A DNA stretch of 64,000 nucleotides from Candidatus Liptonbacteria bacterium (GCA_016867315.1 VGJV01000001.1:130649-194648); one strand, 5' to 3'. Shown: positions 19,167 to 49,512, numbered from the stretch's first letter. Notes: generated by a model from the sequence alone, not told the origin. Made by a program: numbers and translations.

Positions 19167-19194
19167 GAAATTAGAAATTGGGAATTAGAAATTG
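19167..19194. repeat. tandem heptamer repeat GAAATTA GAAATTG GGAATTA GAAATTG (two adjacent 14-bp units)
   Basis: Read directly; it ends 12 nt before the yebC ATG, in the pilB-yebC divergent region. Confidence 0.5.
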
Positions 19195-23157: not shown

Positions 23158-24267
23158 CTACGTCTTAAGGATAGGTTTCACTATGTATTGATAGGAAGCA
23201 TCCCCCACCGAACGAAAGAGGGCGGGGGTGTGTTCATCGTTCAAGCCTATAAACAGTTCTCCGCCGCGGGCTACGCGAAGCATATCGTGCACATATCGGC
23301 CATTAAAAAGCACCTCTCCATTTTCTCCTTGGATTTTTGCAGGAAGCATATATACATTTTCCCCCACTCCTTGAGAGGAGGAGCTTATCTCCACCGCTTT
23401 TTGATCTTTTGAAAATACTAGGCGAACCTCACTCGCTCGATCGTGAAACACACTGGCTAACTTTAAAGCCTCGATAAGATCTTCTTTTCCTACAGTAAGC
23501 TCGCTTTCGAAGGAAGCTGGAATGATGGCGGAGTATTCAGGGAATCTGCCCTCTACAAGCCGGGAGATACACTCCGCATTGGGCGTGGTGAAAAGGATTT
23601 GATTGTCATCCACATATATTTTTACATTCTCCCCTTCTTTTATCAGCCTCAAGAGTTCTTGGCTGGTTTTTAGGGGGATAAGTATTTGGAATTCTTCCCC
23701 AATATTTGAAGAGAATCGGGTGGAGGGGATTTGCTGTTCCGCTAAGCGAAAGCTGTCAGTGGCAGCGAGCGTGATGAGTTGTGGAGTAAAACGAAATGAA
23801 ACACTGTTTAGTTCTGGGCGAAGGTCAGAAAATTCGGTAGCAATGAGCACTCCTCCCAGAGCGTCCTTCAGCACCTCTGCCTTGCATTCAATGTATTTCT
23901 CCGTGTTTTTTATTTTGGGAATAATCGGAAAGTCTTCGGCGGATAAGCTTTGGAACGACGCGCGGTAGTTGTCAGAAGTAAGCGCGATGCTTTGTCCTTT
24001 TTGCTCTAGATTTACCCGTTCGCTCCTCAGTACGCTCAAGACCTCCCCGAAAGCTCGCGCGGGCACTGTGATTTTTCCATTTTCGATTACTTTTCCCGAT
24101 ACCCCATACTGAATCGCGATTTCTAGATTCGTACCCACAAGTGTAAGTTTATTGTTGTTTGCCTCGATGAGAATACTTTTTAAGATCGGAAGCGTGTCTC
24201 CGCCCGCAGCTCGGCTCACTGCGGCGATTCCTTCCATAATAGCTTCTCTTAAGGCGACGGCTTTCAT
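23158..24267 (-). CDS. dnaN: DNA polymerase III beta subunit (sliding clamp)
   Basis: Three-domain clamp pattern, and it sits immediately downstream of dnaA. Confidence 0.85.
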   Translation of the reverse strand: MKAVALREAIMEGIAAVSRAAGGDTLPILKSILIEANNNKLTLVGTNLEIAIQYGVSGKVIENGKITVPARAFGEVLSVLRSERVNLEQKGQSIALTSDNYRASFQSLSAEDFPIIPKIKNTEKYIECKAEVLKDALGGVLIATEFSDLRPELNSVSFRFTPQLITLAATDSFRLAEQQIPSTRFSSNIGEEFQILIPLKTSQELLRLIKEGENVKIYVDDNQILFTTPNAECISRLVEGRFPEYSAIIPASFESELTVGKEDLIEALKLASVFHDRASEVRLVFSKDQKAVEISSSSQGVGENVYMLPAKIQGENGEVLFNGRYVHDMLRVARGGELFIGLNDEHTPALFRSVGDASYQYIVKPILKT

Positions 24268-26401: not shown

Positions 26402-27109
26402 ATGGAATATCTTTATAATACATTCTTATATCACCCTTTCCTTAATGCGCTGGTGCTTCTTTATAACACCGTAGCATTTCAGGATTTGGGAATCGCAATT
26501 ATTTTTTTAACTATTCTTATTCGGGTCGTTCTTTTTCCTCTTTTCCAGAAAAGCGTTCGTCATCAGGCAGTGATGCAACGCCTGCAGCCTGAAATCAAGA
26601 AAATTCAGGTTAAATATCCCAAGGATCGTGAGCAGCAGGCTAAGGAAATGCTTGCGCTCTATAAATCACACCAACTGAATCCTTTTTCAGGGTTCTTCCT
26701 TCTTCTTATTCAACTGCCTGTGCTTATCGCTTTATATCAGGTTTTTGTCAGTATTTCTGACCCGCAAACTTTAGCGCATGGAATATATCCTTTTGTGCAA
26801 ATTCCTGCGGAGTTGAAAGCCACCTTCCTCGGCTTGATTAATTTGAAGGCCCAGAGTATCTTCATGGTGGGTTTAGCGGCTTTTGCCCAATATTTACAAG
26901 GCCGCGCGGCGCTTCCTCCTCATGCGCCGGGGGACTCTTTAAGTGACGCGGAGCGAATGGGAAGGAATATGGTGTATATTGCTCCCATTCTTACTCTTCT
27001 TATTTTCTGGAGTTTTCCTGCGGCGGTCAGCTTGTATTGGTTGGTGAGTTCGATGGTGTCTATTGGACAACAGGTTATCGTGAACCGAGAACTTCGTATA
27101 AAGCAATGA
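26402..27109 (+). CDS. yidC: membrane protein insertase YidC (short, Gram-positive/Oxa1-like form)
   Basis: Multi-TM protein of the YidC/Oxa1 pattern in the conserved rpmH-rnpA-yidC-jag order. Confidence 0.8.
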   Translation: MEYLYNTFLYHPFLNALVLLYNTVAFQDLGIAIIFLTILIRVVLFPLFQKSVRHQAVMQRLQPEIKKIQVKYPKDREQQAKEMLALYKSHQLNPFSGFFLLLIQLPVLIALYQVFVSISDPQTLAHGIYPFVQIPAELKATFLGLINLKAQSIFMVGLAAFAQYLQGRAALPPHAPGDSLSDAERMGRNMVYIAPILTLLIFWSFPAAVSLYWLVSSMVSIGQQVIVNRELRIKQ

Positions 27110-33160: not shown

Positions 33161-33832
33161 TTATGTTTTAGCTTCGCTGCCCGGAATGGTGAGATCTTCT
33201 CTCTCGACGGATTCAGGATTATAAAAGTTATAGAGCATTTCCGCGAGTTCTTTATTTCCTAATGCCACGGCTTCCAAACCGATCGCGTTTAAACCTTCGA
33301 TAACCTGAGCGGTGCGTTGATTAAGTTGCTCCAAGGATTCTTTGAAATCCCCTTCTTTTTCTTCTGCGGCCGCCGCCGCCGCATTCTCGTTTTGTTTTAG
33401 AAATGGAATAAAACGCAGGATACTCCGTGTCGAGGGGAGGGCTACGGTTACCCAGGGGATCACCACAAAAAAAGTTTTTTCCATTATAGCGTTTTTTTCC
33501 ACAAAACCCCGGATGAATTCCCGGTATTCTGAGTTCTGGTTTCGTAATAGTGGGGAGGGTTCGGTTTTTTCAAATCCTCCCAACTTGTCGAGGTACTTTG
33601 AGATGTTAATTCTTCGGGAGTGAATAATAACTTGGAGCGGGAAATCAAGGGTGTTCAGAAAATTTTGATACCCGGAAGTGATGGTATTTTGTTCCGTTTC
33701 CGAACGCAGCGCGAAATTCATCCCGTTTACCATAAGGATTTGTCGTAGGCTGCCGTCGCGGAGTACCAGTACTCCATCGCGGACTTCTTTTACAGCCACT
33801 AAGTCTTGAGCGTTCGCGAATTGTTTTGGCAT
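33161..33832 (-). CDS. VirB4 N-terminal domain encoded as a separate ORF (split VirB4)
   Basis: DGVLVLRDGSLRQILMVNGMNFALRSETEQ…FLNTLDFPLQVIIHSRR matches the Gram-positive VirB4 N-terminal pattern. It ends TAA-tc-ATG, 2 nt before the ATPase ORF. Confidence 0.45.
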   Translation of the reverse strand: MPKQFANAQDLVAVKEVRDGVLVLRDGSLRQILMVNGMNFALRSETEQNTITSGYQNFLNTLDFPLQVIIHSRRINISKYLDKLGGFEKTEPSPLLRNQNSEYREFIRGFVEKNAIMEKTFFVVIPWVTVALPSTRSILRFIPFLKQNENAAAAAAEEKEGDFKESLEQLNQRTAQVIEGLNAIGLEAVALGNKELAEMLYNFYNPESVEREDLTIPGSEAKT

Positions 33833-33837
33833 AGAAC

Positions 33838-33867
33838 AGCTTTAAGGTTTAAGCTTTGAGCTTTAAG
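33838..33867 (+). repeat. 30-bp heptamer element, copy 1 (AGCTTTA AGGTTTA AGCTTTG AGCTTTA AG)
   Basis: Read directly; intergenic. Confidence 0.7.
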
Positions 33868-33879
33868 TGGAAGACCTTC

Positions 33880-34245
33880 TTATTGTACCTTTTTTTGCTC
33901 AAGTTTCTCCTTCATCCCGTAAAGCATTTTCTGGACTTCATCGAGGAGAGATTCGGCTCGTGCGTAGTTCAGTTTAGAATATAGGCGTTTCGCAATTATG
34001 AGTTGAGTTTCTAATTCTGCAGAAGACGCGTCGGCTATTCTTAGGAAGTGGAGGTATTCCGGAATGTCTTTTCGGCGAGAGCCTTCAGCAATGTTTGATG
34101 GTATGGAAATTGTAGCTCTCCGCATTTGAATGCTAAGACCAAACATCTCTTCTTTTGGGAATTGTGCAGTGAGTTCGTAAACTTCAATTACAAGCTCAAT
34201 CGATCTTTGCCATACAATAAGTTCTTTGTAGGATTTTACATACAT
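33880..34245 (-). CDS. four-helix-bundle protein (23S rRNA intervening-sequence protein family, TIGR02436-like)
   Basis: MYVKSYKELIVWQRSIELVIEVYELTAQFPKEE…SIPSNIAEG…LHFLRIADASSAELETQLIIA is characteristic of the family. Confidence 0.7.
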   Translation of the reverse strand: MYVKSYKELIVWQRSIELVIEVYELTAQFPKEEMFGLSIQMRRATISIPSNIAEGSRRKDIPEYLHFLRIADASSAELETQLIIAKRLYSKLNYARAESLLDEVQKMLYGMKEKLEQKKVQ

Positions 34246-34251
34246 ATTGGA

Positions 34252-34281
34252 CTCAAAGCTTAAAGCTGGAAGCTAAAAGCT
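34252..34281 (-). repeat. 30-bp heptamer element, copy 2, in inverted orientation (plus strand reads CTCAAAGCTTAAAGCTGGAAGCTAAAAGCT)
   Basis: Read directly; together with copy 1 it brackets the four-helix-bundle gene. Confidence 0.7.
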
Positions 34282-34287
34282 ATGTAG

Positions 34288-34794
34288 CTATCTGTAGTCT
34301 ACCCGGCGGGCAGCGTGCCGTTCGCCGGTTTTTTTCCGAAACACTGCAAATTGATCCTCGGCCTGGTTCAAGAAGGTTCCCGGGGAGATTTTCCCGGTTC
34401 CGGTTTGCAGCTTTTGCCAGGTTTTTCGCAGGGCCAATCCGGAGAGCACTTCTTCGAGGGAGGCGTTCGAAGTGGGAGAGGTGGGCTCTAGTACGGGAGC
34501 AGGAGCAGTTTTCTTATCCTGGGGTTGCCATACGTACGTTTGAGGTTTCCAGAAGTAGAAGAATGCAGCACGAGCTACGGTAGGAAGAGAACGCCCCCCG
34601 ATCTTTACAAACGCAAGCGCGATACCTATGGCAACAAGGGGCAAAGAGACCAAGAGCCACAGCCATAGTTCCACGAGAAGATATAATATGAGAGATATTC
34701 CTCCCGTAATTCCTATATAGATGAATTGTTTGAGGCTCAAAGGCCCCACAATTTTATCTTCGGTTTCGATGAATTGAGGAACTTGGAATTGCAT
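34288..34794 (-). CDS. PrgI-family (VirB3-like) small membrane protein
   Basis: MQFQVPQFIETEDKIVGPLSLKQFIYIG followed by two TM helices, as in Gram-positive T4SS PrgI proteins. Confidence 0.5.
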   Translation of the reverse strand: MQFQVPQFIETEDKIVGPLSLKQFIYIGITGGISLILYLLVELWLWLLVSLPLVAIGIALAFVKIGGRSLPTVARAAFFYFWKPQTYVWQPQDKKTAPAPVLEPTSPTSNASLEEVLSGLALRKTWQKLQTGTGKISPGTFLNQAEDQFAVFRKKTGERHAARRVDYR

Positions 34795-34801
34795 CAGATT
34801 T

Positions 34802-34831
34802 AGCTTTAAGCGTTAAGCTTTTAGCTTTAAG
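34802..34831 (+). repeat. 30-bp heptamer element, copy 3 (AGCTTTA AGCGTTA AGCTTTT AGCTTTA AG)
   Basis: Read directly; intergenic. Confidence 0.7.
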
Positions 34832-34841
34832 TAAGAATATA

Positions 34842-36062
34842 TCATTTTGGCGGAACGGGAGGCTCGTCGAACGAGTCAAGGTCGAGTATATCATCTCCTG
34901 GCTTCTCCGGCGTGGAGGGAGCTTCCGGGGCGGGAGGAGGCGGGATTTCGGACAGAGAGACAGTTTCCAAAACCTCTTTTTTCTTTCCAAAAAAGCGGGA
35001 GAAAAATCCGGGTTTACTCGGGGAGATGGGCTCCGGAGCAGGGGGAGTTTCTGTTGGAAGTGGCGGCGGAATTTCGGAATCGTTCGAAAAGTTTGAGAAA
35101 TTCAGCACGTCATTCTTGGAAGTTTCGGGATGGGGCATAGGCGGAGGTTCGTCTGCAGCCGGTTCTTTTATGGCTGAGAGAGGGGTTTCTGGAACAGCGG
35201 GTTCTAAGGGGGTGCGAAGATCGGCGTAGTGCACGATTCGCTCTTCGTTTTCGGTTTTACGTTGTTCTGCAGTTTCCTTATTCTCCTCCGAGCCAATCTC
35301 AATATTGGCTTGCGGAACTGGTATAGCCTCGGATTCGGAAGGTCCAAATTCTTCTGGCTTAATGTTTAGAGAAAAATCCTCCACGCGTGGAAGTGAAGGC
35401 GCCCCCGGTTCTTCGTGAAGGATGAATGGAGTGGCATCGGTAGAGGAGGAAGGCACATTTGGGGCAGGAGGGGTTTCAGTGGGCGCTGGAGGCGGAGTGA
35501 ATGACATATCGAACGAGGGGGGAGTGATATCTTGCGGAGGGGTGAAAGAAGGCGAAGGAGTGATTTCGGGCGAGGATTCTAATGAATCGAGCGTTACCGG
35601 GGCTTCCTTAAAGAAGGAATTTTCACCACTTTCCGGCTTTAACTTTTCGAGGGTTTGCTCAAAGGCATCCGGAGTTTGAATATCTTCCATTTGGGTGGGA
35701 GCGGCGTGTTCTTCGGGATGTGTGCCAGGAGGGGCATAGACTGCATCTAATTCATCGCGAAGCGAGCCGAATATTTTGGAGTTCAGTGTAACTGCGATTT
35801 TGTTCGCAATTTCGGGGTGTATGCCCGTCGAGAGTTTTACTTCGTTCGCCACATCCTCGGGATGAAGGAAGCCTAAAAATACCCACGAAGCGATACGCGC
35901 CACTTCTCGGTACTTCTCTTCGGAGAGGTGCTCGGCCTCACAAACTTGAGAGACGAGCTCTCCGTTTTTTTCGGAGGCCAAGGCTTCGCGCAGGTCCGGC
36001 GGGAGCATATCCCAGCGCTGCCAGACTAGATCGTTTGCAATTGTGGTGGGTTGAGGGTTCAT
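34842..36062 (-). CDS. hypothetical protein with a globular N-terminal domain and a long Pro/Glu-rich low-complexity C-terminus
   Basis: ORF within the operon; no TM segment. Confidence 0.35.
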   Translation of the reverse strand: MNPQPTTIANDLVWQRWDMLPPDLREALASEKNGELVSQVCEAEHLSEEKYREVARIASWVFLGFLHPEDVANEVKLSTGIHPEIANKIAVTLNSKIFGSLRDELDAVYAPPGTHPEEHAAPTQMEDIQTPDAFEQTLEKLKPESGENSFFKEAPVTLDSLESSPEITPSPSFTPPQDITPPSFDMSFTPPPAPTETPPAPNVPSSSTDATPFILHEEPGAPSLPRVEDFSLNIKPEEFGPSESEAIPVPQANIEIGSEENKETAEQRKTENEERIVHYADLRTPLEPAVPETPLSAIKEPAADEPPPMPHPETSKNDVLNFSNFSNDSEIPPPLPTETPPAPEPISPSKPGFFSRFFGKKKEVLETVSLSEIPPPPAPEAPSTPEKPGDDILDLDSFDEPPVPPK

Positions 36063-36065
36063 GGG

Positions 36066-38630
36066 TTAGTGATTGGGGTGGTCTCCTCCGCCGCCGCTAC
36101 TGCTGCCGAAAGGACTTTCTACCTTTGGCGCGTGTTCTTCTTTGTGTGCGTGTTCGCCATGGTCTTCGCCTTCATGCACATGCGCCTCATGTTCTTGGCT
36201 CGTCATGTGGCTGGCGAGACTTTTGTTAAGATTGTCGAGGCCTTTTTGCAATTTCTTTTTCAAATCCCCCGCGGAGGCATTGATTCCTTTGTTGTAGGTA
36301 GTTTTCATCAATTTTTCGAAACTCTGTAGTTGTTTCGCATTCAACTTCCCAATAATTTGAGGGACTAGCTGTTGATTGGTGTGTGCCATTTTCTCGGCAA
36401 GTACTTCAGCCATTATTTTAATACTCTCTTTGCTCAACCCGAATGCAGGTTTGTCTCCAAATATTTCTTTATATTGCACTTTGTCGCCTTTCTTTAGTTC
36501 CTCTACTTTTTTCTGTATCTCTTTTTGTTTTTCTAGCGCGTTGACTGTTCTTCCTGTAGGCTTGCCAGTTTCGGGGTCGATTTCGGCCACCTCCGCCTTT
36601 TCTCGCGCAGCTTGAGTCGCTTGTTTTACATATTTTTCAAACTCGGAAGGCTCATTGGCTTTTTGGAGAGCACTCTCTCTCGCATTTTCGGCTTTCTCAG
36701 GGCTATCACCGTGCGCGATTGCTTCTTCGTAGGCGACTTGACCTTTTTTATACCGGGCTACTGCTATTGCTTTGTCGCGTGCTTCCTCAGCTTCCTTGTC
36801 GTTGTCTCCGTGCATTTTAGCTTCTTCATAAGCCTTTTTACCGGCTTCCGATACTTCGGTGTCGCGGGAAAGGCCTTTTCTTTCCGCCCACATTTCCGCT
36901 TCCTCCCCGGCAATTTTTTCAGCTTCGGTCATTGCTTCTAGATAGGGTTTGGACAAACCTGCCCAATCCGTGGCTTTTTGCGCATTCTCATACGCTTCTT
37001 CCTTCCCAAATCGCTTAAAGGCGGCTTTTTGATCCGGAGCAATATATTTCGCATCTACCTTATCGAGCCAACCTTCCTTTGTGGCTTGTTCAATAAGCGC
37101 AATGCGGCGAGCCATGTTCGCTCCCGGGATCAAATTCGCTTTTTGCTGATTGGTCATTCCGGCGGTTTCTTTCTTCACAATTTCCGCTTCTTCTTTGGCG
37201 AGCTTGCCGGTTATCCTTACTTCCCCGGCTTGAATAGCCTCTCCTATTTTTTGACCTGCGAATTGTACGCCTGATAATTTAGCAGCTTTTCCTAGCCCTC
37301 TCATAAATCGATTACTGCTGTTCTGACCATACCCGCCGGACATCATTTTATTGGCTATATTTGGTACCCAGCCCTTAGTTTGGAGTACTTTTCCGCCGAG
37401 TTGCTTAGAGCGGCGGATACCCCAGTTCCCTACTGCTTTTACCGCCCACTTCGTGGCGTGGCCTCCGGCAATCCCGAATTTTTCAGCGACAATGATTCCT
37501 CCGATCGAGAGTCCTACAAGCACTGCGGCTTGGAGGAAAGTGCCAATGGTGTTTGAGGCGCCGCCCAACACGAAGTTCGAAAGCCCCGTAAGGAAGCTCG
37601 TATCATCTGCGGAGGTAAGCCCCAATCCTTTTAAAGCGGCGTATGGATTCGTGCCTCCTTCTTGAGACATTTTTTCCGAGGTGATGATCACAAGCCACAA
37701 GAAAAAAAGCGAGACAGGGGCGAAGAAGGTCCATTTCCAAAATTTATCCCACCATGAGGACCACCACTTCGAGGTATTAGGGAAAACCCACAGGAGCCAG
37801 ACAAGAGGCATGACGATGAGGAGCATCCCTATATAGATGTACCGGACTACAAGCATCCAGAAAAATACCGCGATTGTAATGCAGATCACGATAAGGATGA
37901 CCGCGGCGAATATGAGACTTATAAAAGGGGCAAAAATGGCTCCGAGAGACTGGCCAGCTGCAGCTGCCCCTCCGACTTTTTGCAAGTCTTCCATTTCAGT
38001 GGTGTAGTCTGCTTGAGAAAGAGTGGGATTGAGTATCGCTCGTTGAGGATTGAAAGCGCCTCCGAAGGCTTTAGCAAATTCGTGAAAACCTCGCGTTCCC
38101 CCTCCGCCTCCTGGAAGAGCGGTCAAAAATACTTTCGAGAATTGATCGGAGAAGTTTAGAATCCCCCCTGTAATGACCAAGCTGAAGTTAACCAGAAGAG
38201 CTGCGACAATGAGTTTCACGAGGAGCTTTTTCATTCCGTACGACTCGTAGCGGATGATTGTGGCGATAGCGATGATAATGATGCCAAGTACGAACCCCAG
38301 GTTTGCCACTTGGAGCGAAACCTCGAAGCCTTTTTGTACCGCGGTGGTATTGATGATATTTGTATTCAGCTCGAGCATGATGCCTATCCCGATGACCATG
38401 AGAGAGAGGAAAAATCCCACTACGGAGGTCACAAGATATGCAATCACAAAGGCCACCCAGCCTATGGCTCCTCCCAGGACGCTGCCAATTCCAAAGAGGC
38501 CGGTGAGCCAGCCCCCAAATTGGGCATGAGTGGGTAAAGGCAACAGGAAGGCGGTAGATATTCCGATACTTGCCAAGGCGATTATCGGTTTTCGCCAGAG
38601 TCGATTCACTATAGAAAAAAGGAAGTTCAT
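36066..38630 (-). CDS. VirB6/TrbL-like polytopic membrane protein with a charged coiled-coil C-terminal domain and a His-rich tail
   Basis: Roughly 420 aa with many TM helices, then an E/K/A-rich region with internal repeats (AYEEAKMHGDNDKEAEEARDKAIAVA / AYEEAIAHGDSPEKAENARESALQKA), ending HEAHVHEGEDHGEHAHKEEHAPK. Confidence 0.4.
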   Translation of the reverse strand: MNFLFSIVNRLWRKPIIALASIGISTAFLLPLPTHAQFGGWLTGLFGIGSVLGGAIGWVAFVIAYLVTSVVGFFLSLMVIGIGIMLELNTNIINTTAVQKGFEVSLQVANLGFVLGIIIIAIATIIRYESYGMKKLLVKLIVAALLVNFSLVITGGILNFSDQFSKVFLTALPGGGGGTRGFHEFAKAFGGAFNPQRAILNPTLSQADYTTEMEDLQKVGGAAAAGQSLGAIFAPFISLIFAAVILIVICITIAVFFWMLVVRYIYIGMLLIVMPLVWLLWVFPNTSKWWSSWWDKFWKWTFFAPVSLFFLWLVIITSEKMSQEGGTNPYAALKGLGLTSADDTSFLTGLSNFVLGGASNTIGTFLQAAVLVGLSIGGIIVAEKFGIAGGHATKWAVKAVGNWGIRRSKQLGGKVLQTKGWVPNIANKMMSGGYGQNSSNRFMRGLGKAAKLSGVQFAGQKIGEAIQAGEVRITGKLAKEEAEIVKKETAGMTNQQKANLIPGANMARRIALIEQATKEGWLDKVDAKYIAPDQKAAFKRFGKEEAYENAQKATDWAGLSKPYLEAMTEAEKIAGEEAEMWAERKGLSRDTEVSEAGKKAYEEAKMHGDNDKEAEEARDKAIAVARYKKGQVAYEEAIAHGDSPEKAENARESALQKANEPSEFEKYVKQATQAAREKAEVAEIDPETGKPTGRTVNALEKQKEIQKKVEELKKGDKVQYKEIFGDKPAFGLSKESIKIMAEVLAEKMAHTNQQLVPQIIGKLNAKQLQSFEKLMKTTYNKGINASAGDLKKKLQKGLDNLNKSLASHMTSQEHEAHVHEGEDHGEHAHKEEHAPKVESPFGSSSGGGGDHPNH

Positions 38631-41600
38631 TATTGTTGGACAGTCAGGGTGCGCACTCGCGGGGTGGCGGCTACGCCGTCCACTTCTAAGGTGTAGGTAA
38701 GCCGATAGGTGCCGGGAGGAAGGGTGTACAGAGAAGAGGTTGGATTTAGAGGTTTAATGGTGTTCCGTGCGGAATCTTCTATTTTCACCTGGATTTTGGA
38801 TTGATCAGCTGGCTGGGGGTTGTTGTAATACGGGTAGGCTTTGGCGGTTACCCATTGAGGTAAAAGCGGATTGATATTAGTGGCCTGTTTTTTCGTGAAC
38901 GAGGCGGGCACTTTTGAGACATCAATTACCGGGCGGAGATGGCGGAAGAGTTCCACTTCACGAAATACTATTCTTTGAGCTTCAAATCTCACCTTCGTGG
39001 TTTTTACGGTGTTTGCTTTTATGTTCCCTACATTCGTCCAGTTTCGAGGATCGTTTCGAGAGCCAGGGCCTCGATATGTTTTTTTCATCGCTGTTTCTTG
39101 GGAAAGGTTCACTTTCTTATCAGCTTCGCTGTTGTCTGTAAGGTCTATTTCATAGCGCGTGTTTTCATCTCCTTCGAAAAGTACGAGAAATGGACCCGCT
39201 TGGGTGCCGGTTTGAGCTCCTACAATTGAATAGGGTTTTAATGTAAATTTTTCTTCGCTTAAGTACTTTACATATTTCACCTCATTGAGGTATTCGGGGG
39301 CAAAGAGAGTCACCTCCCACCAGCCAGGATTATTATCCCCTCCATAATTATCGGAATAGGAGTCAAGGGTTCCATCTACCGCCTCCGAAGCGAACCGGTC
39401 TTTGTAGGTGTGGTTTTGGCCGGTGGTTGCGTCATACAGATTTACTTTGGGGTTCTGCGCCTCCAAATCTTCCAAGCCGGAGAGGAGGATATCTCCTTCT
39501 TCTGGGAAGTATATGTCATCGGGTACCGTTTCGGCTCCGGAAGTTTTGCGAGATTCGCTTACAATTCCAGCTACTCCAAATCTCACGCTTTGAAGGGTTT
39601 CAAGTTGTTTTCGCGCATTGGTACAAGCTTGGCTTTTTACCGTGCATTGGACTGTCACCTGATTTCGCAGCTTACATTCTTGTAAGTTTTGACCTGAAAA
39701 ATTCTTACAATTTCTTTCATCGAGCAATGCCTCCATCTGCTCACGAGCGGTGTCGCACGTGCTGCCGCTCTTTCTGCCGGTGTCGCATTCTGTAACTTCT
39801 TTTTGAATATTACATTCTTGAAGGGCTTGCCCAGTGAGGGCGGAGCAATCCGTGACTGTCACGGTCCCTCCCCTTCCGTAGCTTACTTGCGAGAGTCCCG
39901 AGCCGGTGGGTTGCCCATTAATCGCCGAAACTCCCGAGGTAATGAGGCGAGTGAGCGCCGCGTCTGCGGCCACCGCAATCAGACCTGCAATGTCATTCGC
40001 ATTGATAATGGTGTCCGCTGGTAGGGAAAGGCTTTTGGTGAGTGTGTCGCCCAACACTTTTCCGGGAGTGCGCACGATGGGTTGTTCTCCACCTGGACAG
40101 CCATCCGCCAGGTTAGAGCCGTCTGGCATCGGGCCGTACGGGCGAGGATTACCGTCTTTATCCTGCCCCGGTGGTTTGCCGGTCGAGGGACAGATTTCCG
40201 TGCTTAGGAATCCGCTTCCGGCGAGGGCTTTATTTTTGGCGGCTTCGGCGGCGGCAATTGCTTCTCTCGTTACCCGATCGTGACCCTCAATCATGATGCC
40301 GAAGAAGTTCCCCGTGGGTTGGAAGGTGACTCCGTATTGGATCCAGCCGCCGGCGTGGAAGTTGCTATAAAAATTTTTTATATTTGATACCACTTGATTC
40401 AGCGTGCAGCCGGTGTAGACGGGGACGGTGACTCCTGGGGCTTGAATGGAAATACGCAAAAATGCTCCTAGCTCCGAGGGATAGCAAAGTTCCGGAATCA
40501 GTTTTTCTATTACCGCCCCCGCAGCGTTATTGAAGGCATTCGATAAGAATCCTTTCCAGTCTGTCACGAATTGAGGTTTTCCACCGCCGTTGATCCAGCT
40601 CACGATTTGTTGCTGGAGCATCGCAATAAGCTGATTTTTGAGTTCTTGCAGAAACACTTTCTGGGCCAAATCCCACAAGCGTTGGAGCCAATTTTTCTTA
40701 TCATCAGCTACTTCATTCCCTGTGAGTTTTGCAGCAATCTTATTCAGCGTAGCGTCTAATACTGGTACGCGGCTTCCCTGGGCAAACGCTTGTTTAATTC
40801 CTAAAAGGCGTTCTAGCAAAGAAAGCTGGGTTTGAGGAGAGAGAGAAGAAAGATCGAGGAGTTCGGTTTCCCTCGCGAGATTTTGCATGTCTCTGAAGAG
40901 TACCCCCTCCGCCTGTTTTTCTACCTCTTTAATTATTGCGATCGACTTTAAGGGATCGTCTGGTTCTCCCAAGGCTACGTCCACCATTTTTTTCTGGTTC
41001 GAGACGAGCGTGAGTAACTTCTTATGAAATTCCAAAAGAGGTTGAGGCACACTCGCTTTCAAAAGAGCTTGCGTGGCGCTTCTATATACAGTTACCCCGG
41101 CGTAAATTGCTTCGAGACTGGCGGATTTTTTTTGCAGGTTCTCAAAATCATTGCTCAGAATAGTACGATTGAGGACGTCTTCAGTCGTCGCAATATATTG
41201 GGCGAAATCTTGTTCGTTGGGATTTGAAATCAGAGAAAGTTCTTTCTCGTTCACACTTTCCGGAAATTCAGGAAGTTCTTTTAAGAGCGCAGGAGCATCT
41301 ACTAGATTTTGTGTAATAAGTGTTTCGAGGGTGGTGCGGTTGGGAGAGGTAAGGCCATTCGCAGGACCATTGAGGGTGCCTACCGCATCATTTACTCGAA
41401 TTACTTCCCCTGCCAAAATGTTTCCCAGTCGGCGAGTGAGGTTGGTCGAGCTCGCATGTCCGGAGTTAAGAGAGGCGGAGGGAGAAAGTGATTGGGTTTT
41501 CGAGGTAAACGCGTTTTCGGGAGCGGCGGATTTGGAGGTGGAGAGAGAGGGAGTGGCTTCAGAGCGTAAGTAATCCAAGAAGCTCGAGGTGCCGAAGGAG

Positions 41601-41662
41601 AAGAGAGTTGCTAACACAGAGAAGAAGAGGAAGCCGGAAATAAGTTTTTTGATATCGGGCAT
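38630..41662 (-). CDS. large (1010 aa) secreted/surface protein with a Cys-rich central region; first gene of the T4SS-like operon
   Basis: N-terminal hydrophobic signal/anchor and multiple CxnC clusters (…CSALTGQALQECNIQKEVTECDTGRKSGSTCD…). Confidence 0.4.
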   Translation of the reverse strand: MPDIKKLISGFLFFSVLATLFSFGTSSFLDYLRSEATPSLSTSKSAAPENAFTSKTQSLSPSASLNSGHASSTNLTRRLGNILAGEVIRVNDAVGTLNGPANGLTSPNRTTLETLITQNLVDAPALLKELPEFPESVNEKELSLISNPNEQDFAQYIATTEDVLNRTILSNDFENLQKKSASLEAIYAGVTVYRSATQALLKASVPQPLLEFHKKLLTLVSNQKKMVDVALGEPDDPLKSIAIIKEVEKQAEGVLFRDMQNLARETELLDLSSLSPQTQLSLLERLLGIKQAFAQGSRVPVLDATLNKIAAKLTGNEVADDKKNWLQRLWDLAQKVFLQELKNQLIAMLQQQIVSWINGGGKPQFVTDWKGFLSNAFNNAAGAVIEKLIPELCYPSELGAFLRISIQAPGVTVPVYTGCTLNQVVSNIKNFYSNFHAGGWIQYGVTFQPTGNFFGIMIEGHDRVTREAIAAAEAAKNKALAGSGFLSTEICPSTGKPPGQDKDGNPRPYGPMPDGSNLADGCPGGEQPIVRTPGKVLGDTLTKSLSLPADTIINANDIAGLIAVAADAALTRLITSGVSAINGQPTGSGLSQVSYGRGGTVTVTDCSALTGQALQECNIQKEVTECDTGRKSGSTCDTAREQMEALLDERNCKNFSGQNLQECKLRNQVTVQCTVKSQACTNARKQLETLQSVRFGVAGIVSESRKTSGAETVPDDIYFPEEGDILLSGLEDLEAQNPKVNLYDATTGQNHTYKDRFASEAVDGTLDSYSDNYGGDNNPGWWEVTLFAPEYLNEVKYVKYLSEEKFTLKPYSIVGAQTGTQAGPFLVLFEGDENTRYEIDLTDNSEADKKVNLSQETAMKKTYRGPGSRNDPRNWTNVGNIKANTVKTTKVRFEAQRIVFREVELFRHLRPVIDVSKVPASFTKKQATNINPLLPQWVTAKAYPYYNNPQPADQSKIQVKIEDSARNTIKPLNPTSSLYTLPPGTYRLTYTLEVDGVAATPRVRTLTVQQ

Positions 41663-41712
41663 GTGGATAACCGGCGCATTCCTTGTGGATAGAATACGCC
41701 ACCTCTATTATA
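41662..41712 (-). promoter_or_regulatory. leader/promoter of the T4SS-like operon, containing a perfect DnaA box (41662-41670), a second 8/9 box (TGTGGATAG, 41684-41692) and a TATAAT -10 hexamer (41707-41712)
   Basis: On the coding strand this reads …TATAAT…CTATCCACA…TTATCCACATG with the start codon at the end; read directly. Confidence 0.35.
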
Positions 41713-41766
41713 CCCGCCGCGAAACTTACAATTATGCAGTTTTATGCACAGCCCCGTCCTTTTTCT

Positions 41767-42564
41767 CTAGAAAAAGGAGGTGAGGGAGTGAATTTGGGAA
41801 AGAGAGAGGGTTTGGGGGCGGACCGAGGGGTCGATCCCCTTCTCTTTCAGGATTTTGGCGAGTTTCTCTTTGGGGAGCTGGAGGGTGGCGGCAAGATTAT
41901 TGAGCACTGTTTTTCGAGGTTGGCTGAATAATGATTGTACTGTAGCGAAATATTTTTTTTCTTTTCCTTGTTTCACGATGGGGAAAATTTGAATGACTGC
42001 GGATTCTACTTTAGGGGGAGGAGAAAAGGCTCCAGGGGGAATTTGGAGAATAATTTTACCTTTTCCCCAAAATCCCACACTTGCCGCCAATTTATTCATA
42101 TGCGGAGGTTTGGCGAGGAGTCGCTCCGCTACTTCTTTTTGAATCAAAAGAACCGTTAGCTGGGGAGAGGGCTCGCGTTCTCCGATAAGACGTAAGAGAA
42201 ACCCTGTAAGATAGTAAGGAATGTTTCCTACTATTTTATAGGGCAGCTTTGAGCTTTGAGCTTTGAGCTTTGAGATCAGAGAGGGAAGCACTTCTCGAAC
42301 ATCACCCTCTACAATTTCTAGATTTCTGGCTTTGGCAAATTTTATCCGAAGCTCTTCTGCGAGTCGCGCGTCTTTTTCTATCGTTACGATTTTTGGGGGG
42401 CTCGCTAAAAGCTTATCGCTTAACGCTAAAAGCTCTTTCGTGAGTTCCCCGTGTCCTCCCCCTATTTCAATTACCGTTTCTCCTTTTTGGGGAGCAAGGG
42501 CCGCCGTAATTTTAAAAAGCGCGCTTTTATCTTTTAGAAAGTGTTGACCAAGCTTCTGTCCCAT
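41767..42564 (-). CDS. rsmA: 16S rRNA (adenine1518/1519-N6)-dimethyltransferase RsmA/KsgA, carrying two in-frame 10-codon insertions
   Basis: MGQKLGQHFLKDKSALFKI… with the SAM motif VIEIGGGHGELT. The two insertions are the heptamer elements at 42245 and 42405. Confidence 0.85.
   Translation of the reverse strand: MGQKLGQHFLKDKSALFKITAALAPQKGETVIEIGGGHGELTKELLALSDKLLASPPKIVTIEKDARLAEELRIKFAKARNLEIVEGDVREVLPSLISKLKAQSSKLPYKIVGNIPYYLTGFLLRLIGEREPSPQLTVLLIQKEVAERLLAKPPHMNKLAASVGFWGKGKIILQIPPGAFSPPPKVESAVIQIFPIVKQGKEKKYFATVQSLFSQPRKTVLNNLAATLQLPKEKLAKILKEKGIDPSVRPQTLSLSQIHSLTSFF
42245..42274 (+). repeat. 30-bp heptamer element, copy 4 (AGCTTTG x4 plus AG), in-frame inside ksgA (encodes KLKAQSSKLP-region)
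   Basis: Read directly and translated. Confidence 0.7.
42405..42434 (-). repeat. 30-bp heptamer element, copy 5, inverted orientation (CTAAAAGCTTATCGCTTAACGCTAAAAGCT), in-frame inside ksgA (encodes LALSDKLLAS)
   Basis: Read directly and translated. Confidence 0.65.
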
Positions 42565-42632
42565 TTGGGGCTATTATGCCTTGGGAGGGCATTCATGGGA
42601 AGGAAGAACCGTTACGGGTATAATCTCCCTAT

Positions 42633-43793
42633 ATGAGTACCAGGGGCAAAGTTTTGGTGATTTTAGGAAGTGGTCTCTTTATACTTCTCTTATTTTTGGC
42701 TCTGTTCGTGTTTAGGAAGCAGCCTACGCTTCCACAGGCGGTTTATCCAAAAGATTCATACCCCTCTTCTTTAGAAGAAGGGGCTCGCAACGCGTTTTTG
42801 AATTCTAAGGGCGATCGGCTGGTTCCTATGGAAAACGAGAATGGGATGATTTTACCGAGCAGCGATTTTTTACCTACTTCCTCTCGAACGTATTCGGTCG
42901 AAGTGCCCGAGCCGGTGAAGAGTTTTGTCTCGGTTAATACCCCCCCTCTTTCAGAAGAGACTCTTGCTCTCCCCCTTATTCCCGATTCGGAGCTCGCAGT
43001 GGATTCTTCGGGTGTGAAAACTGCTGAGGAATATATAAAGCATTTCATTGCTTTTTCTGGAGAGGTGCAGTTTGATTCTAAGCGTTTTCAATCGGCTCTT
43101 CGAAATTCAGATGGAGTGGCAATTCTTCCGGCTAATTTAATGGAGCAGGCATTGGAACGCAATTCGTTTGTAGAAATAAAACCCTCATTGCTTATTTGGA
43201 AAGAATTTATTTCTGCAAAGCTTGCATTTATGAAAGGCATCAAGGTATATGGCGAGGCTGTGTTGGTGCAGAAGAGGATGCTTGGATTCGATGAGCTTAC
43301 CCTAGGTCTTATTGAGGATGCTTTAAAAGTGGAGGAAGGAAAAATGATGCGTGCAGAATTTGAGAACTTTTTTAAAAAGTTTAGAGCCACTGCGCGACAG
43401 GAGAACCGAGAATTAGGAAAGCAGTTTCAATTAGCAAGGCTTCAGAGGGACGGAGGATTTTTTGACCGTCTCCTCGCTTGGTTCGGAATTCTCCCTGTTT
43501 CTGCGGCTAATCCTCCACTTGGGGCCACTCTTGGGCAGCCTTTGATGTGCACGTGTGAAAACGCGTACTGGATTCCAGTGACGGGGCCCACGGTGCCGCC
43601 CATCGGTTCGATCTGGGTGCCTATGACTTTCTTGTCCTCGCCTCTTTATTATGACAACCAAACTATGCGCGCCGGAGTATGGTGGCTAGGGCTCTATACC
43701 CAAGGCATACAAACCTGCAAAGATGCTTCGGATGAGTGTAGTGGAGTGTGGAGGCAGGGTGCTCCTATTTTTATGACTGGTACAAACAGTTAA
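42633..43793 (+). CDS. hypothetical membrane-anchored protein with a Cys-containing C-terminal domain
   Basis: N-terminal TM VLVILGSGLFILLLFLALFVF; no family recognised. Confidence 0.35.
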   Translation: MSTRGKVLVILGSGLFILLLFLALFVFRKQPTLPQAVYPKDSYPSSLEEGARNAFLNSKGDRLVPMENENGMILPSSDFLPTSSRTYSVEVPEPVKSFVSVNTPPLSEETLALPLIPDSELAVDSSGVKTAEEYIKHFIAFSGEVQFDSKRFQSALRNSDGVAILPANLMEQALERNSFVEIKPSLLIWKEFISAKLAFMKGIKVYGEAVLVQKRMLGFDELTLGLIEDALKVEEGKMMRAEFENFFKKFRATARQENRELGKQFQLARLQRDGGFFDRLLAWFGILPVSAANPPLGATLGQPLMCTCENAYWIPVTGPTVPPIGSIWVPMTFLSSPLYYDNQTMRAGVWWLGLYTQGIQTCKDASDECSGVWRQGAPIFMTGTNS

Positions 43794-45586
43794 TCCAATT
43801 GGATTTCTAAATCGTCGGAATACGAATCCGAATAAGAAGGGTCTGTCGCGGTTTCGGTGCGAAGAAACTCCGCGAGATTGGGCGGAATTTCGCCTATGAA
43901 TCGGGAAGGAATCCCGGAGAAAGAAATCGCCAGCTCGTGGCGCGCTCGCGTCATTCCTACATACATCAATCGGCGTTCTTCTTCAATCTCGTTTTCTGAT
44001 TCCATAGAGCGATTGTGAGGCAACATTCCTTCAGCGCAGCCAGCGAGAAAAACCTGGTCGAATTCTAGGCCTTTTGCAAGGTGAATGGTCGAGAGATGGA
44101 CCGGCATAGCGTTAAGCGTTAAGCTTTTAGCTTTAAGTTCCGCGTTCACGTCGTCGGTCGATTGCACGAGCGCAATATGTTCGAGAAAGGTTCCCAGATC
44201 ACTAAAGCTTTCTGCAAATCGAAGCAGCTCATTGATGTTTTCGCGCCGCTCCTCCGGATTCATCGTTTCTCGTTCAAGATAGTCGAAATACTCTGTAGTG
44301 GAGAGAAAGTTTTCGATTACTTCTCGAGGAGGTTTCCCCAGAGCTTCTTCGAGCACTGGAAGAAGGGCTTTCCAAACTCGGACGCGAAAAGCCTTTTCTA
44401 ACCGTTCGCGGCTCATTTCATCTTTGGGATTCATTGTGAGGCGGAGCGCTGCCACAATGTCTTTAATTTCGCGGCGGTCATAAAATTTTAAGCCTCCGTA
44501 AATTCGGTACGCAATGTTTTTCTTGAGTAGGGCTTGTTCGATTGCACGGGATTGCGCGTTCGTGCGGTAGAGAATCGCGGTACTTCCCTGCCTGTTTCCT
44601 TTAGAGAGCTTCCCTTCCAAAATTTGTGCGGCGATCCATTCTGCTTCATCCTCTTCATTTAACGTTTCCGTAATCGTGATTACCTCGCCGTCTGGGTTGC
44701 GCGTCCAGAGATTTTTTTCCCGAGCTACTATATTGTTCGCGATCACCGCTGAGGCTGCGTGTACGATCGTGCCCGACGAGCGATAGTTTTCCTCAAGGAG
44801 TACCACTTGCGCGTTCGGCCAATCCCGCTCGAACTGGAGAAACGTTTCTATGTTGGCATACCTCCATCCATAGATCATTTGAGCATCGTCTCCCACGACA
44901 CTCACATTTTTGTTAGGCCCAGAGAGAAGTCGGATTAAGGTATATTGCGCAGGACTCACATCTTGATATTCATCTACCAGGATATACTGGTATTTTTCCT
45001 GATACTTCGCGAGAATGGCGGGACGATTTTCGAAAAGCCAAACTACTTTCGCAATAAGATCGTCAAAATCGAACGCGTTATTTCGAGTGAGCGCCATTTC
45101 ATATCGCTCAAACACTCTTTGTTCTTCGCGGTGACGAAGCGAGAGGGTTTCTTTTCCGGCGCCGCTCTTTATATAGGAGATGAATTGAAGGAAGCGCGGA
45201 GGTTTGCCGCCCTTAATATCCAACTCCTTTAGCACTTTTTTTATTACGGAAAGGCTGTCGTGATCATCAAAAATAGTGAAGTGTGAGGTACGGCCTAGCT
45301 CCTTAGCTTCTTTTCTTAAGATATTTGCCCCGAGGGAATGAAAGGTGCCGATGAAGCCTCCAGATTTGGGATTGTAGTGCACTCGTTCCGCCATTTCTTT
45401 AGCGGCTTTATTTGTAAAGGTAACCGCGCATATAGTGTGGGCAGGCGCTCCGTGTTCAATAAGGTGCATAAGCCTGCTCGTAAGGGTTCGGGTTTTGCCT
45501 GTGCCTGCTCCTGCCACAATCAAAAGGGGCGTGTTTTCGGCTTTCACGGCACGTTGCTGTTGGGGATTTAAAGTGGAAAAGTCCAT
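43790..45586 (-). CDS. pcrA: UvrD/PcrA-family ATP-dependent DNA helicase (short form) with one in-frame 10-codon insertion
   Basis: Walker A AGAGTGKTRTL and motifs …VDEYQD…, …TIHLAKGLEF…; the insertion is the heptamer element at 44108. Confidence 0.85.
   Translation of the reverse strand: MDFSTLNPQQQRAVKAENTPLLIVAGAGTGKTRTLTSRLMHLIEHGAPAHTICAVTFTNKAAKEMAERVHYNPKSGGFIGTFHSLGANILRKEAKELGRTSHFTIFDDHDSLSVIKKVLKELDIKGGKPPRFLQFISYIKSGAGKETLSLRHREEQRVFERYEMALTRNNAFDFDDLIAKVVWLFENRPAILAKYQEKYQYILVDEYQDVSPAQYTLIRLLSGPNKNVSVVGDDAQMIYGWRYANIETFLQFERDWPNAQVVLLEENYRSSGTIVHAASAVIANNIVAREKNLWTRNPDGEVITITETLNEEDEAEWIAAQILEGKLSKGNRQGSTAILYRTNAQSRAIEQALLKKNIAYRIYGGLKFYDRREIKDIVAALRLTMNPKDEMSRERLEKAFRVRVWKALLPVLEEALGKPPREVIENFLSTTEYFDYLERETMNPEERRENINELLRFAESFSDLGTFLEHIALVQSTDDVNAELKAKSLTLNAMPVHLSTIHLAKGLEFDQVFLAGCAEGMLPHNRSMESENEIEEERRLMYVGMTRARHELAISFSGIPSRFIGEIPPNLAEFLRTETATDPSYSDSYSDDLEIQLD
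44108..44137 (+). repeat. 30-bp heptamer element, copy 6 (AGCGTTA AGCGTTA AGCTTTT AGCTTTA AG), in-frame inside pcrA (encodes LKAKSLTLNA)
   Basis: 29/30 identical to copy 3. Confidence 0.7.
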
Positions 45587-48878: not shown

Positions 48879-49512
48879 TCAAAAGTTTAATGACCTTGTA
48901 TTTTAGCCTGATGCTGTATTTTGATAAACAATTTTGTTTGTCTCCCATATAAATTCTTGATAAATAACTGACAAACACCTTTTTTATTAGATTTCCTGGT
49001 TTTTAAGACTTCCTGGCCTTGTAAAGCGACAAACAATTTAAATTTTATCCAAATTGTCGTAGAAGCCTGATTTATGAAGCTTATGTATAAACTTAAATTT
49101 TTCAGGAACCTCAGGGTCGATTCCTATCTGTTCTAACCAACTTTCAAACTGTCTGCCTTTATTTCCGATTAACTTATTGTAGAAAAGCGGGACTATTATG
49201 TTCTTTAATGGTCCAAATTCCCTCACTATAAGAATTGCTATTGGGCCTCTTTTTGATCCATCCCTTCCTTGGTAATGATATGTATATATTTTGTTTTTTA
49301 GGCCTAATGAATCCCTTACCGATTTTAATAGTTCCTGGTCCCTCATATGCATCCTAATTGCAAAGGCTGGTATTTTCTTCCCATTCGATTTGGAAAATGT
49401 AAAGCATCCTTCTCCCTCTACTAACCCTCTTATATATTCTGGTGAGATGCTCATGTTTCGCGTTTTACATCTTAATTTTACATTATTTGTTTACCCGTTA
49501 TACACTGCTTTT
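48879..49512. mobile_element. AT-rich insertion carrying a free-standing LAGLIDADG homing-endonuclease gene
   Basis: Local base composition drops sharply relative to the flanks; the non-coding flanks are 159 bp and 58 bp; the only gene is a single-motif LAGLIDADG ORF. Confidence 0.35.
49038..49454 (-). CDS. LAGLIDADG-family homing endonuclease (single-motif, 138 aa)
   Basis: YIRGLVEGEGCFTF is a LAGLIDADG motif variant, followed by the typical beta-sheet/helix spacing. Confidence 0.6.
   Translation of the reverse strand: MSISPEYIRGLVEGEGCFTFSKSNGKKIPAFAIRMHMRDQELLKSVRDSLGLKNKIYTYHYQGRDGSKRGPIAILIVREFGPLKNIIVPLFYNKLIGNKGRQFESWLEQIGIDPEVPEKFKFIHKLHKSGFYDNLDKI

Follow-up and report, generated by a model that had tools for sequence, protein, structure and literature searches.

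Tandem repeats of heptanucleotides have been known from bacteria since 1990, the year in which Mazel reportedly described the STRR heptamers of cyanobacteria. Two further systems bear on the repeats considered here. The intervening sequence (IVS) of the Coxiella 23S rRNA contains an open reading frame (ORF) of the PF05635 family within a 28-bp terminal stem that is cut by RNase III; three GACAGAT heptamers and a degenerate fourth lie directly upstream of the ATG of this ORF, S23p, and strains of Coxiella differ in the number of heptamer copies (PMC4990558). Insertions in the rRNA of the candidate phyla radiation (CPR) also carry a PF05635 ORF (PMC11270868). TAACTGA direct repeats are found in Beggiatoaceae, Cyanobacteria and Bacteroidetes, where their function is unknown, and a link to PF05635 is not mentioned in their description (MacGregor 2015, PMC4679880). 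For heptamer or tandem repeats in CPR bacteria, a search of the literature gave nothing relevant. Here we describe six 30-nt arrays of heptamers in a stretch of 64,000 nucleotides (the window) from the chromosome of Candidatus Liptonbacteria (Parcubacteria, CPR). Two of them bracket a PF05635 gene outside rRNA, and three lie in frame within the housekeeping genes ksgA and pcrA. We tentatively read them as the arms of an IVS-type cassette together with orphan copies of the same sequence family. The preliminary description of these arrays held that no such element had been described, which is too strong, as both heptanucleotide repeats (PMC4679880) and the heptamer arms of the Coxiella IVS (PMC4990558) have been published; what is new is that the modules are in frame, recurrent and lineage-specific.

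Each array consists of four 7-nt units followed by AG, on the pattern (AGCKTTW)x4+AG, and all six were found where the preliminary description had placed them and in the same orientations (Table 1). A search of the window with a three-unit pattern, allowing up to two mismatches, returned nine matches, all of them within the six arrays, where dinucleotide shuffles gave an expectation of 0.01. The copies are identical to one another at 23 to 29 of 30 positions, and the 29/30 identity that had been claimed for copies 3 and 6, one intergenic and the other in pcrA about 9 kb away, was recovered. Tandem Repeats Finder assigned a period of 7 and 4.0-4.3 copies to five of the six arrays; copy 5 was missed by this program and picked up by the pattern and lag-7 scans. 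The AGCNTTN core occurs in the window 137 times singly (125 expected) and four times as a double (4.5 expected), then not at all as a triple, six times as a quadruple and never as a longer run. Arrays of three or five units are absent from the window, and the variable copy number that characterizes heptamer repeats is not seen in it. As originally noted, single modules are non-palindromic, matching their own reverse complement at 17-20 of 30 positions, but copies do occur as inverted pairs, one of which brackets the PF05635 gene.

Table 1. Heptamer arrays and selected genes of the window, numbered from its first nucleotide.
Feature	Position	Strand or orientation	Description
Array copy 1	33838-33867	+	AGCTTTA AGGTTTA AGCTTTG AGCTTTA AG; fills the spacer between the PF05635 and TraC-like genes, stopping 5 nt before the ATG at 33832; 3' stem arm
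Array copy 2	34252-34281	inverted	Coding strand AGCTTTT AGCTTCC AGCTTTA AGCTTTG AG; fills the spacer between the PrgI-like and PF05635 genes, stopping 6 nt before the PF05635 ATG at 34245; 5' stem arm
Array copy 3	34802-34831	+	Spacer between a gene of 406 aa and the PrgI-like gene, stopping 7 nt before the ATG at 34794
Array copy 4	42245-42274	+	Perfect (AGCTTTG)x4+AG; antisense in ksgA, KsgA residues 97-107 (site 2)
Array copy 5	42405-42434	inverted	Sense in ksgA, KsgA residues 44-54 (site 1)
Array copy 6	44108-44137	+	Antisense in pcrA/uvrD, residues 484-493 (LKAKSLTLNA)
Seventh array	19167-19193		(GAAATTA)x4; about 13 nt upstream of the start of a yebC/TACO1-family gene
PF05635 gene	33880-34245	minus	'23S rRNA intervening sequence protein' (S23p), four-helix-bundle protein, 121 aa; Pfam E 2.7e-34
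ksgA/rsmA	41767-42564	minus	16S rRNA dimethyltransferase; host of copies 4 and 5
pcrA/uvrD-type helicase gene	43790-45586	minus	Host of copy 6
dnaN	23158-24267	minus	Origin neighbourhood
dnaA	24403-25761	minus	Origin neighbourhood
yidC-family gene	26402-27109		After dnaA
LAGLIDADG endonuclease gene	49038-49454		Free-standing, 138 aa; adjoins a UPF0102/NERD-like gene

Copies 1 and 2 form inverted arms around the PF05635 gene (Pfam cut-off for the family, 33.8 bits). Their complementarity is 20/24 in the best 24-nt window, a value reached by 1 of 400 random controls (18/24 was reached by 9 of 400), and the two copies pair with each other, enclosing the ORF, in both the minimum free energy and the centroid folds, although the folding score is modest (z = -1.78). 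The encoded protein is homologous to XCC0516, whose crystal structure (PDB 2GSC; E 2e-22) has five chains in the entry. The gene sits between genes for PrgI-like and TraC-like proteins in a type IV secretion-like operon; the syntenic loci L008 and L009 do not have it, while L234, a relative that is fully syntenic with the window, has it at this junction. The cassette shares with an IVS the PF05635 ORF, complementary borders that form a stem and four heptamers directly upstream of the start of the ORF; it lies between protein genes and not, as an IVS does, in a helix of 23S or 16S rRNA. The two copies would act as the arms of an IVS-type cassette, giving a stem of about 28-30 bp in the transcript. 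In rRNA such a stem is a substrate of RNase III, and by analogy the stem of the window may be processed in the same way.

An association of PF05635 genes with repeats extends beyond this locus. We examined 19 such genes, nine from loci of CPR bacteria, Chitinophaga and Puia and ten from plasmids (nine cyanobacterial and one of Gemmatirosa). Fifteen are bordered either by inverted repeats that score 19/24 or better, judged against the same 400 random controls, or by long heptamer arms, and the flanks are heptamer-periodic in 13. On the plasmids, the PF05635 genes are lone inserts between functionally linked genes of an operon, for example those for ribonucleotide reductase beta and alpha, cas6 and cas4, cas10 and cmr3, and toxin-secretion genes. 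The flanking arrays of the cyanobacterial genes have 5-12 units; those of a Nostoc gene read (AGTAGGG)x8 and (TCCCTAC)x5, and a Pseudanabaena gene has direct AAAAGCT-type arrays, which is the window's own unit. A further example is a viral contig on which the gene directly adjoins a 30-nt array of AGCTTTTx4.

Some further features of these cassettes were recorded. In the cyanobacterial plasmid loci L210-L217, the PF05635 gene is sometimes on the strand opposite to its neighbours, and the upstream arms are purine-rich with GGAG-type motifs, the downstream arms being their complement. Among the Parcubacteria, the cassette lies directly upstream of ksgA in L199, L157 and L149 (in L199 within the spacer between pcrA and ksgA), and 7-9 kb downstream of ksgA in the window, L234, L193, L202, L162 and L195. 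In the window and L234, this downstream position is the PrgI/TraC junction.

The three coding copies lie in frame and encode the peptides originally given for them (KsgA codons 44-54 and 97-107, and PcrA codons 484-493). It had also been claimed that each adds exactly 10 codons, and alignment with orthologues shows otherwise. Site 1 of KsgA alone behaves as an insertion, of about eight residues relative to some Parcubacteria orthologues. At site 2 the segment is of near-constant length in relatives, with four extra residues in the KsgA of the window, and the PcrA copy lies within a linker that is of similar length in relatives, where it encodes part of the variable stretch preceding the conserved 'VxLxTIHLAKGLEF'. 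Clean in-frame insertion was rejected as a general account, KsgA site 1 being the only copy to fit it. In an AlphaFold model of KsgA (pLDDT 92.8), both arrays are predicted to form the C-terminus of a surface helix and the loop that follows it, the helix being residues 40-50 for site 1 and 89-102 for site 2. The expectation that insertions would fall in surface loops is thus borne out by the model as far as the location of the KsgA copies goes, but not as to clean 10-residue insertions. No heptamer arrays were found in the genes of the window for PolA, FtsH, CTP synthase, TyrRS, NusA, DnaA or RuvB.

The preliminary description placed the conservation at the level of DNA and not of protein, and this holds. 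The arrays form a DNA-level family because they are read in three frames, occur in both orientations and include intergenic copies; in addition, an intergenic copy matches the one in pcrA almost perfectly, and synonymous codons are kept at KsgA site 1. We therefore give almost no credence to the alternative that the segments are selected peptide motifs of KsgA and PcrA. Relatives at about 55% identity do keep ELLALSDKL and LKLKA-type peptides, and one clade keeps IIHNSSFII at KsgA site 2 despite a decayed DNA periodicity. However, selection on amino acids cannot produce a 7-nt periodicity, and the intergenic copies and differences in frame effectively refute this reading.

The nearest relatives point in the same direction. 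The site-1 array of L233, whose KsgA is 56% identical to that of the window, matches the window's array at 29 of 30 positions, and that of L234 (KsgA 47% identical) at 26 of 30. Among identical amino acids at this site, codons are identical in 7/9, 9/10 and 8/8 cases in the three comparisons (24/27 overall). Elsewhere in the gene the figure is 39-51% (p = 0.027, 0.016 and 0.0008), although the window sequence is common to all three comparisons, which makes them non-independent. In L234, the same pcrA linker carries (AGCGACA)x4+AG in the orientation opposite to the window's, ksgA site 2 carries a CGCTTAC-type array, and two neighbouring genes carry (AGCAAGA)x4+AG and (GGACAAA)x4. From these comparisons, the sites appear to be old, with sequences that turn over in concert within a genome. 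The presence of other units at the same sites in other lineages is equally compatible with arrays of long standing that turn over in concert and with insertions that happened repeatedly.

We also scanned 83 related loci and the window, the sample comprising 80 KsgA loci from metagenomes and several obtained through exact-protein look-ups, for segments of 30 nt that match themselves, at a lag of 7 nt, in 18 or more of 23 positions. The scan returned 126 arrays with a median length of 30 nt, against about none in shuffled sequence and 0-17 at other lags in the same loci. Array density is 0.89/kb in ksgA and 0.086/kb in its flanks, a tenfold difference, and 36 of the 83 ksgA genes carry arrays, at recurrent offsets of about 125, 190, 270 and 560 nt. 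A large share of the flank arrays is in the adjoining pcrA/uvrD gene, at three variable loops; in some relatives, such as L193, two inverted modules stand 20-25 nt apart in pcrA and PcrA is longer by about 28 aa for each. The unit is lineage-specific (AGCTTTW, GAATTAW, GATTTAA, TAGGGTT, TAGGTTG, CCAATTA, AGTATCT and CGCGAAG, among others) and is shared 3-4 times more frequently within a locus than between loci, with at least five different units in locus L179.

Two observations in these loci stand apart. The unit TTTAGGG/CCCTAAA, found in L179 (10539-10801 and 17369-17436) and L198 (10193-10587) and reading KPYTLNP in the ksgA frame, equals the plant-type telomere repeat, a likeness that is probably a coincidence. 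In L143, nt 209-268 of ksgA (site 1b) hold an in-frame, non-heptamer, 24-nt perfect-type hairpin, GATTTTAAGAAGCAGGGTGGCGCT / AGCGCCACCCTGCTTCTATAATGA, with a folding z of -6.5, which suggests that this site also accepts other small palindromes.

Inverted pairs are frequent within ksgA. An array in the first half of the gene (nt 95-245) is the reverse complement of the site-2 array (nt 245-330), with a complementarity of at least 19/24, in 18 of 84 genes; cross-genome controls gave 6 of 497, and direct-copy pairs occur in 1 of 84 genes. Such pairs, site 1 or 1b with site 2, could be a conserved regulatory mRNA stem, for example a site for RNase III or for autoregulation, in which the heptamer composition would be a secondary matter, and the covariation-like presence of at least eight different arm sequences would agree with this. 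However, the arms of the window match at 23/30 only and are unpaired in the predicted fold (z = -0.58), folding scores across the 84 genes are no different from those of a control region (z = -1.01 vs. -1.17), and mismatches of the arms on the sense strand show no excess of G-U (13, against 25 A-C). The pairing is missing in 66 of the 84 genes, and the orientation bias could stem from coding constraints, a purine-rich strand encoding charged helices. We consider a regulatory stem highly improbable.

The arrays might also be ordinary microsatellites that arose in place by independent slippage, at spots where changes of length are tolerated, with the unit set by local mutational bias, no copying between sites and no link to PF05635. 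Heptanucleotide repeats are the most abundant long simple sequence repeats (SSRs) in most prokaryotic genomes that are rich in long SSRs (Mrazek 2007, as quoted in PMC4679880), and a loose heptamer pattern is present in at least 120 genomes of many phyla, in arrays of 30-121 nt that are often 30-nt arms of hairpins, although this pattern fixed the motif beforehand and shows breadth, not enrichment. The variation in heptamer number among Coxiella strains (PMC4990558) would also be expected of microsatellites, as would arrays at ksgA site 2 whose units keep the phase of the conserved Y-K-L codons next to them (TAT AAG CTN) and look like these codons, as if seeded there. However, the discrete size of the arrays in the window, with quadruples and nothing between these and doubles, is not what slippage alone predicts, nor is the near identity of copies 9 kb apart in unrelated contexts. 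The excess of inverted over direct pairs in ksgA and the sharing of units within loci also speak against independent origins, and array length did not vary among six assemblies of the window population, which has been assembled repeatedly from lake metagenomes. In these six assemblies the arrays are identical, with one or two base differences elsewhere. Taken together, we regard independent microsatellites as an unlikely explanation. A phase-variable contingency locus was set aside for now, given the fixed unit number, the in-frame length and the identity of the six assemblies.

We favor instead, tentatively and at a little less than an even chance, the reading that the arrays are DNA-level repeat modules, some being arms of an IVS-type PF05635 cassette and the rest orphan copies, tolerated where they are located. 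The 30-nt blocks would be this genome's form of a class of repeats found widely, in Parcubacteria and in other phyla, and the four AGCKTTW copies other than the cassette arms would be orphans of that sequence family. The 7-nt period would result from slippage, and the prevailing unit of the genome would pass from one array to others nearby by template switching or gene conversion, whichever way the arrays are oriented. Copies would persist only where they are permitted, in intercistronic spacers and in those codons of ksgA and pcrA that specify loops and the solvent-exposed ends of helices, in a frame free of stops, and would serve no function of the host.

Several observations weigh against this reading. 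The preliminary description had proposed a family of inserted elements, and mobility found no support: there are no target-site duplications and no conserved or shared flanks at the arrays, close relatives showed no empty site (the KsgA of the nearest one is about 57% identical), and variation in copy number, which that description had suggested looking for among related strains, was absent from the six assemblies, which represent one clonal population and report on polymorphism at that time scale only. The association with PF05635 holds from the side of the gene only. The converse, that every heptamer array marks a PF05635 gene, was rejected, as such a gene was present at 2 of 120 genome loci and 1 of 13 viral loci among the matches listed, and in L199, L162 and L234 the PF05635 arms use a unit other than that of the ksgA arrays. 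No wobble bias that would support pairing in RNA was found in the ksgA arms. The likeness of site-2 units to the Y-K-L codons suggests local birth rather than import, with some arrays seeded where they stand. Finally, the copies could be functional in their own right, given the nucleotide conservation at ksgA site 1 and the tenfold enrichment in ksgA and pcrA. No signature of a transposon was seen at the arrays.

The model of tolerated passengers fails to predict either the synonymous conservation or the preference for ksgA and pcrA, and a trans-acting reader therefore remains a serious rival, if on balance a somewhat unlikely one. The arrays would be binding sites of a factor that reads 7-nt periodic motifs, forming a regulon or a centromere-like set. 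On DNA, the factor might resemble the omega ribbon-helix-helix repressor of plasmid pSM19035; on RNA, it might be the putatively pentameric PF05635 protein or S1/Csp-type proteins, as proposed for the TAACTGA repeats. The geometry of the arrays in the window fits ribbon-helix-helix heptad arrays, and Pfam scans of the larger ORFs identified no such protein. Five AG motifs at 7-nt spacing are present in every copy, and in the AGCGACA and AGCAAGA modules of L234 as well, and the PF05635 homolog of known structure was crystallized with five chains per entry. The seven arrays, including the GAAATTA array, are all no more than about 20 kb away from dnaA and from the switch in GC skew. The four intergenic arrays (three of AGCKTTW and one of GAAATTA) stop 5-13 nt before an ATG without a Shine-Dalgarno motif, in a genome poor in such motifs, as do TAACTGA repeats (PMC4679880), although the spacers that hold them are only 40-75 nt long and a compact genome forces intergenic arrays close to start codons. 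A single factor is also difficult to reconcile with units that differ within one locus, as in L179, and between orthologous sites, including the reversal of orientation in pcrA; several factors or very fast co-evolution would be needed. The cyanobacterial PF05635 flanks, with 5-12 units, do not have a fixed set of five motifs, and PF05635 is the only candidate binder among the ORFs of the window that were scanned.

A more far-reaching proposal, which we hold to be quite unlikely, is that PF05635 pentamers and heptamer arrays make up one widespread system. The protein would read motifs spaced by 7 nt, in the window five AG(C) per module, and would in this way mobilize or homogenize the arrays or control the RNAs that carry them. 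Were this true, the STRR, TAACTGA and rRNA-IVS heptamers would share one cause, and the in-frame arrays of ksgA and pcrA would be functional recognition sites, as is parS within coding sequence.

These results matter for several reasons. Heptanucleotide repeats are unexplained, and PF05635 is a family with a solved structure and without a known function. The window joins the two outside rRNA, a connection that holds in 15 of the 19 genes examined, from three phyla, and two housekeeping genes of CPR bacteria contain the same 30-nt modules as an in-frame part of their coding sequence. In practice, array segments can mislead the alignment and annotation of conserved CPR marker genes.

The window is from the oriC region of the chromosome. 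It probably spans the replication origin, as dnaN and dnaA are present and the cumulative GC skew turns at about 24 kb. Genes around the arrays are on the minus strand throughout. The seventh array represents a second heptamer family in the same genome, with the same kind of module and a different unit; it is situated in a 74-nt divergent spacer between a gene for an ATPase of type II secretion or type IV pili and the yebC-family gene, which at 178 aa is short for its family. A Shine-Dalgarno motif is missing from most genes, as judged from the upstream regions of about 56 ORFs of the window. A TATAAT-like hexamer stands only 8-14 nt before the ATG of several genes (for example at 42633, 43790-45586, 17459-19132 and 1184-1930), and such hexamers suggest leaderless mRNAs or ones with very short leaders. 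The arrangement of the LAGLIDADG gene with its UPF0102/NERD-like neighbour is kept in the syntenic loci L008 and L234 and is therefore not a recent homing event. An Rfam scan of 33-45 kb by E-value gave a single match at chance level and no known RNA family, and no rRNA match was found in the same interval. A connection with diversity-generating retroelements was rejected, as the match to bAvd is weak (30.7 bits against a cut-off of 40) and no reverse transcriptase was found among the ORFs of the window that were scanned. In a Clostridia metagenome-assembled genome (L034), two inverted AGTTTTN arrays lie 2 kb apart (609-638 and 2662-2691) and have in common the 25 nt that come after them, gagaacgacaaa..gagtttagcg; the pair resembles terminal inverted repeats of 55 nt, with the heptamers in subterminal position, at the ends of a 2-kb element.

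Among known systems, the heptads read by DNA-binding proteins are alike in geometry. The omega ribbon-helix-helix repressor of pSM19035 binds runs of 7-bp heptads, direct or inverted, and parS of P1 has heptamer boxes. Like the arrays of the window, these are contiguous 7-bp units in direct or inverted order. They are read cooperatively by a small oligomeric protein and reside in plasmid promoters or centromeres with one fixed sequence per system, whereas the units of the window vary between arrays. Rickettsia palindromic elements are 100-150 bp long, individually palindromic and clear insertions, in frame, in conserved genes. They share with the modules of the window that they are multi-copy DNA-level repeats, in frame and surface-exposed, with the function of the host protein kept. 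The window's modules differ in being 30 nt long, individually non-palindromic and mostly replacing rather than adding residues; the inverted module pairs of L193 pcrA come closer to the Rickettsia elements. Repetitive extragenic palindromic (REP) sequences are imperfect palindromes, mobilized by RAYT transposases and essentially extragenic, and Elhai in 2008 reportedly described small dispersed repeats (SDR) of 21-27 nt in cyanobacteria that lie within heptamer repeats and interrupt coding sequences. REP/REPIN and SDR elements resemble the arrays of the window as dispersed repeats of 20-40 nt that are genome-specific and often form inverted doublets capable of making hairpins, but the internal periodicity of 7 nt sets the window's arrays apart. 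Their units, unlike REPs, are non-palindromic, half of the copies are intragenic, and no Y1 transposase (RAYT/IS200-like) was found among 40 ORFs of the window scanned against Pfam.

The closest comparisons are with the two systems considered at the outset. The 23S rRNA IVS of Coxiella burnetii and Leptospira (PMC4990558), like the cassette of the window, has a PF05635 ORF that is looped out by terminal inverted repeats of about 28-30 nt, with a 5' arm of about four tandem heptamers a few nucleotides upstream of the ATG. It differs in being inserted in helix 9, 25 or 45 of the rRNA and not between protein genes, and orphan copies of the arm sequence such as those in ksgA and pcrA are undescribed for any IVS. 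TAACTGA repeats (PMC4679880) are likewise tandem, lineage-specific heptamers that mostly lie a few nucleotides before start codons lacking a Shine-Dalgarno motif, with a minority inside ORFs in a stop-free orientation. However, their sets vary from 2 to 6 copies, whereas the modules of the window are fixed at four units, and their copies within ORFs are at protein termini or in hypothetical proteins, whereas those of the window are in internal loops of housekeeping enzymes. Unlike the TAACTGA repeats, the window's modules recur at orthologous positions with changing units, often as inverted pairs.

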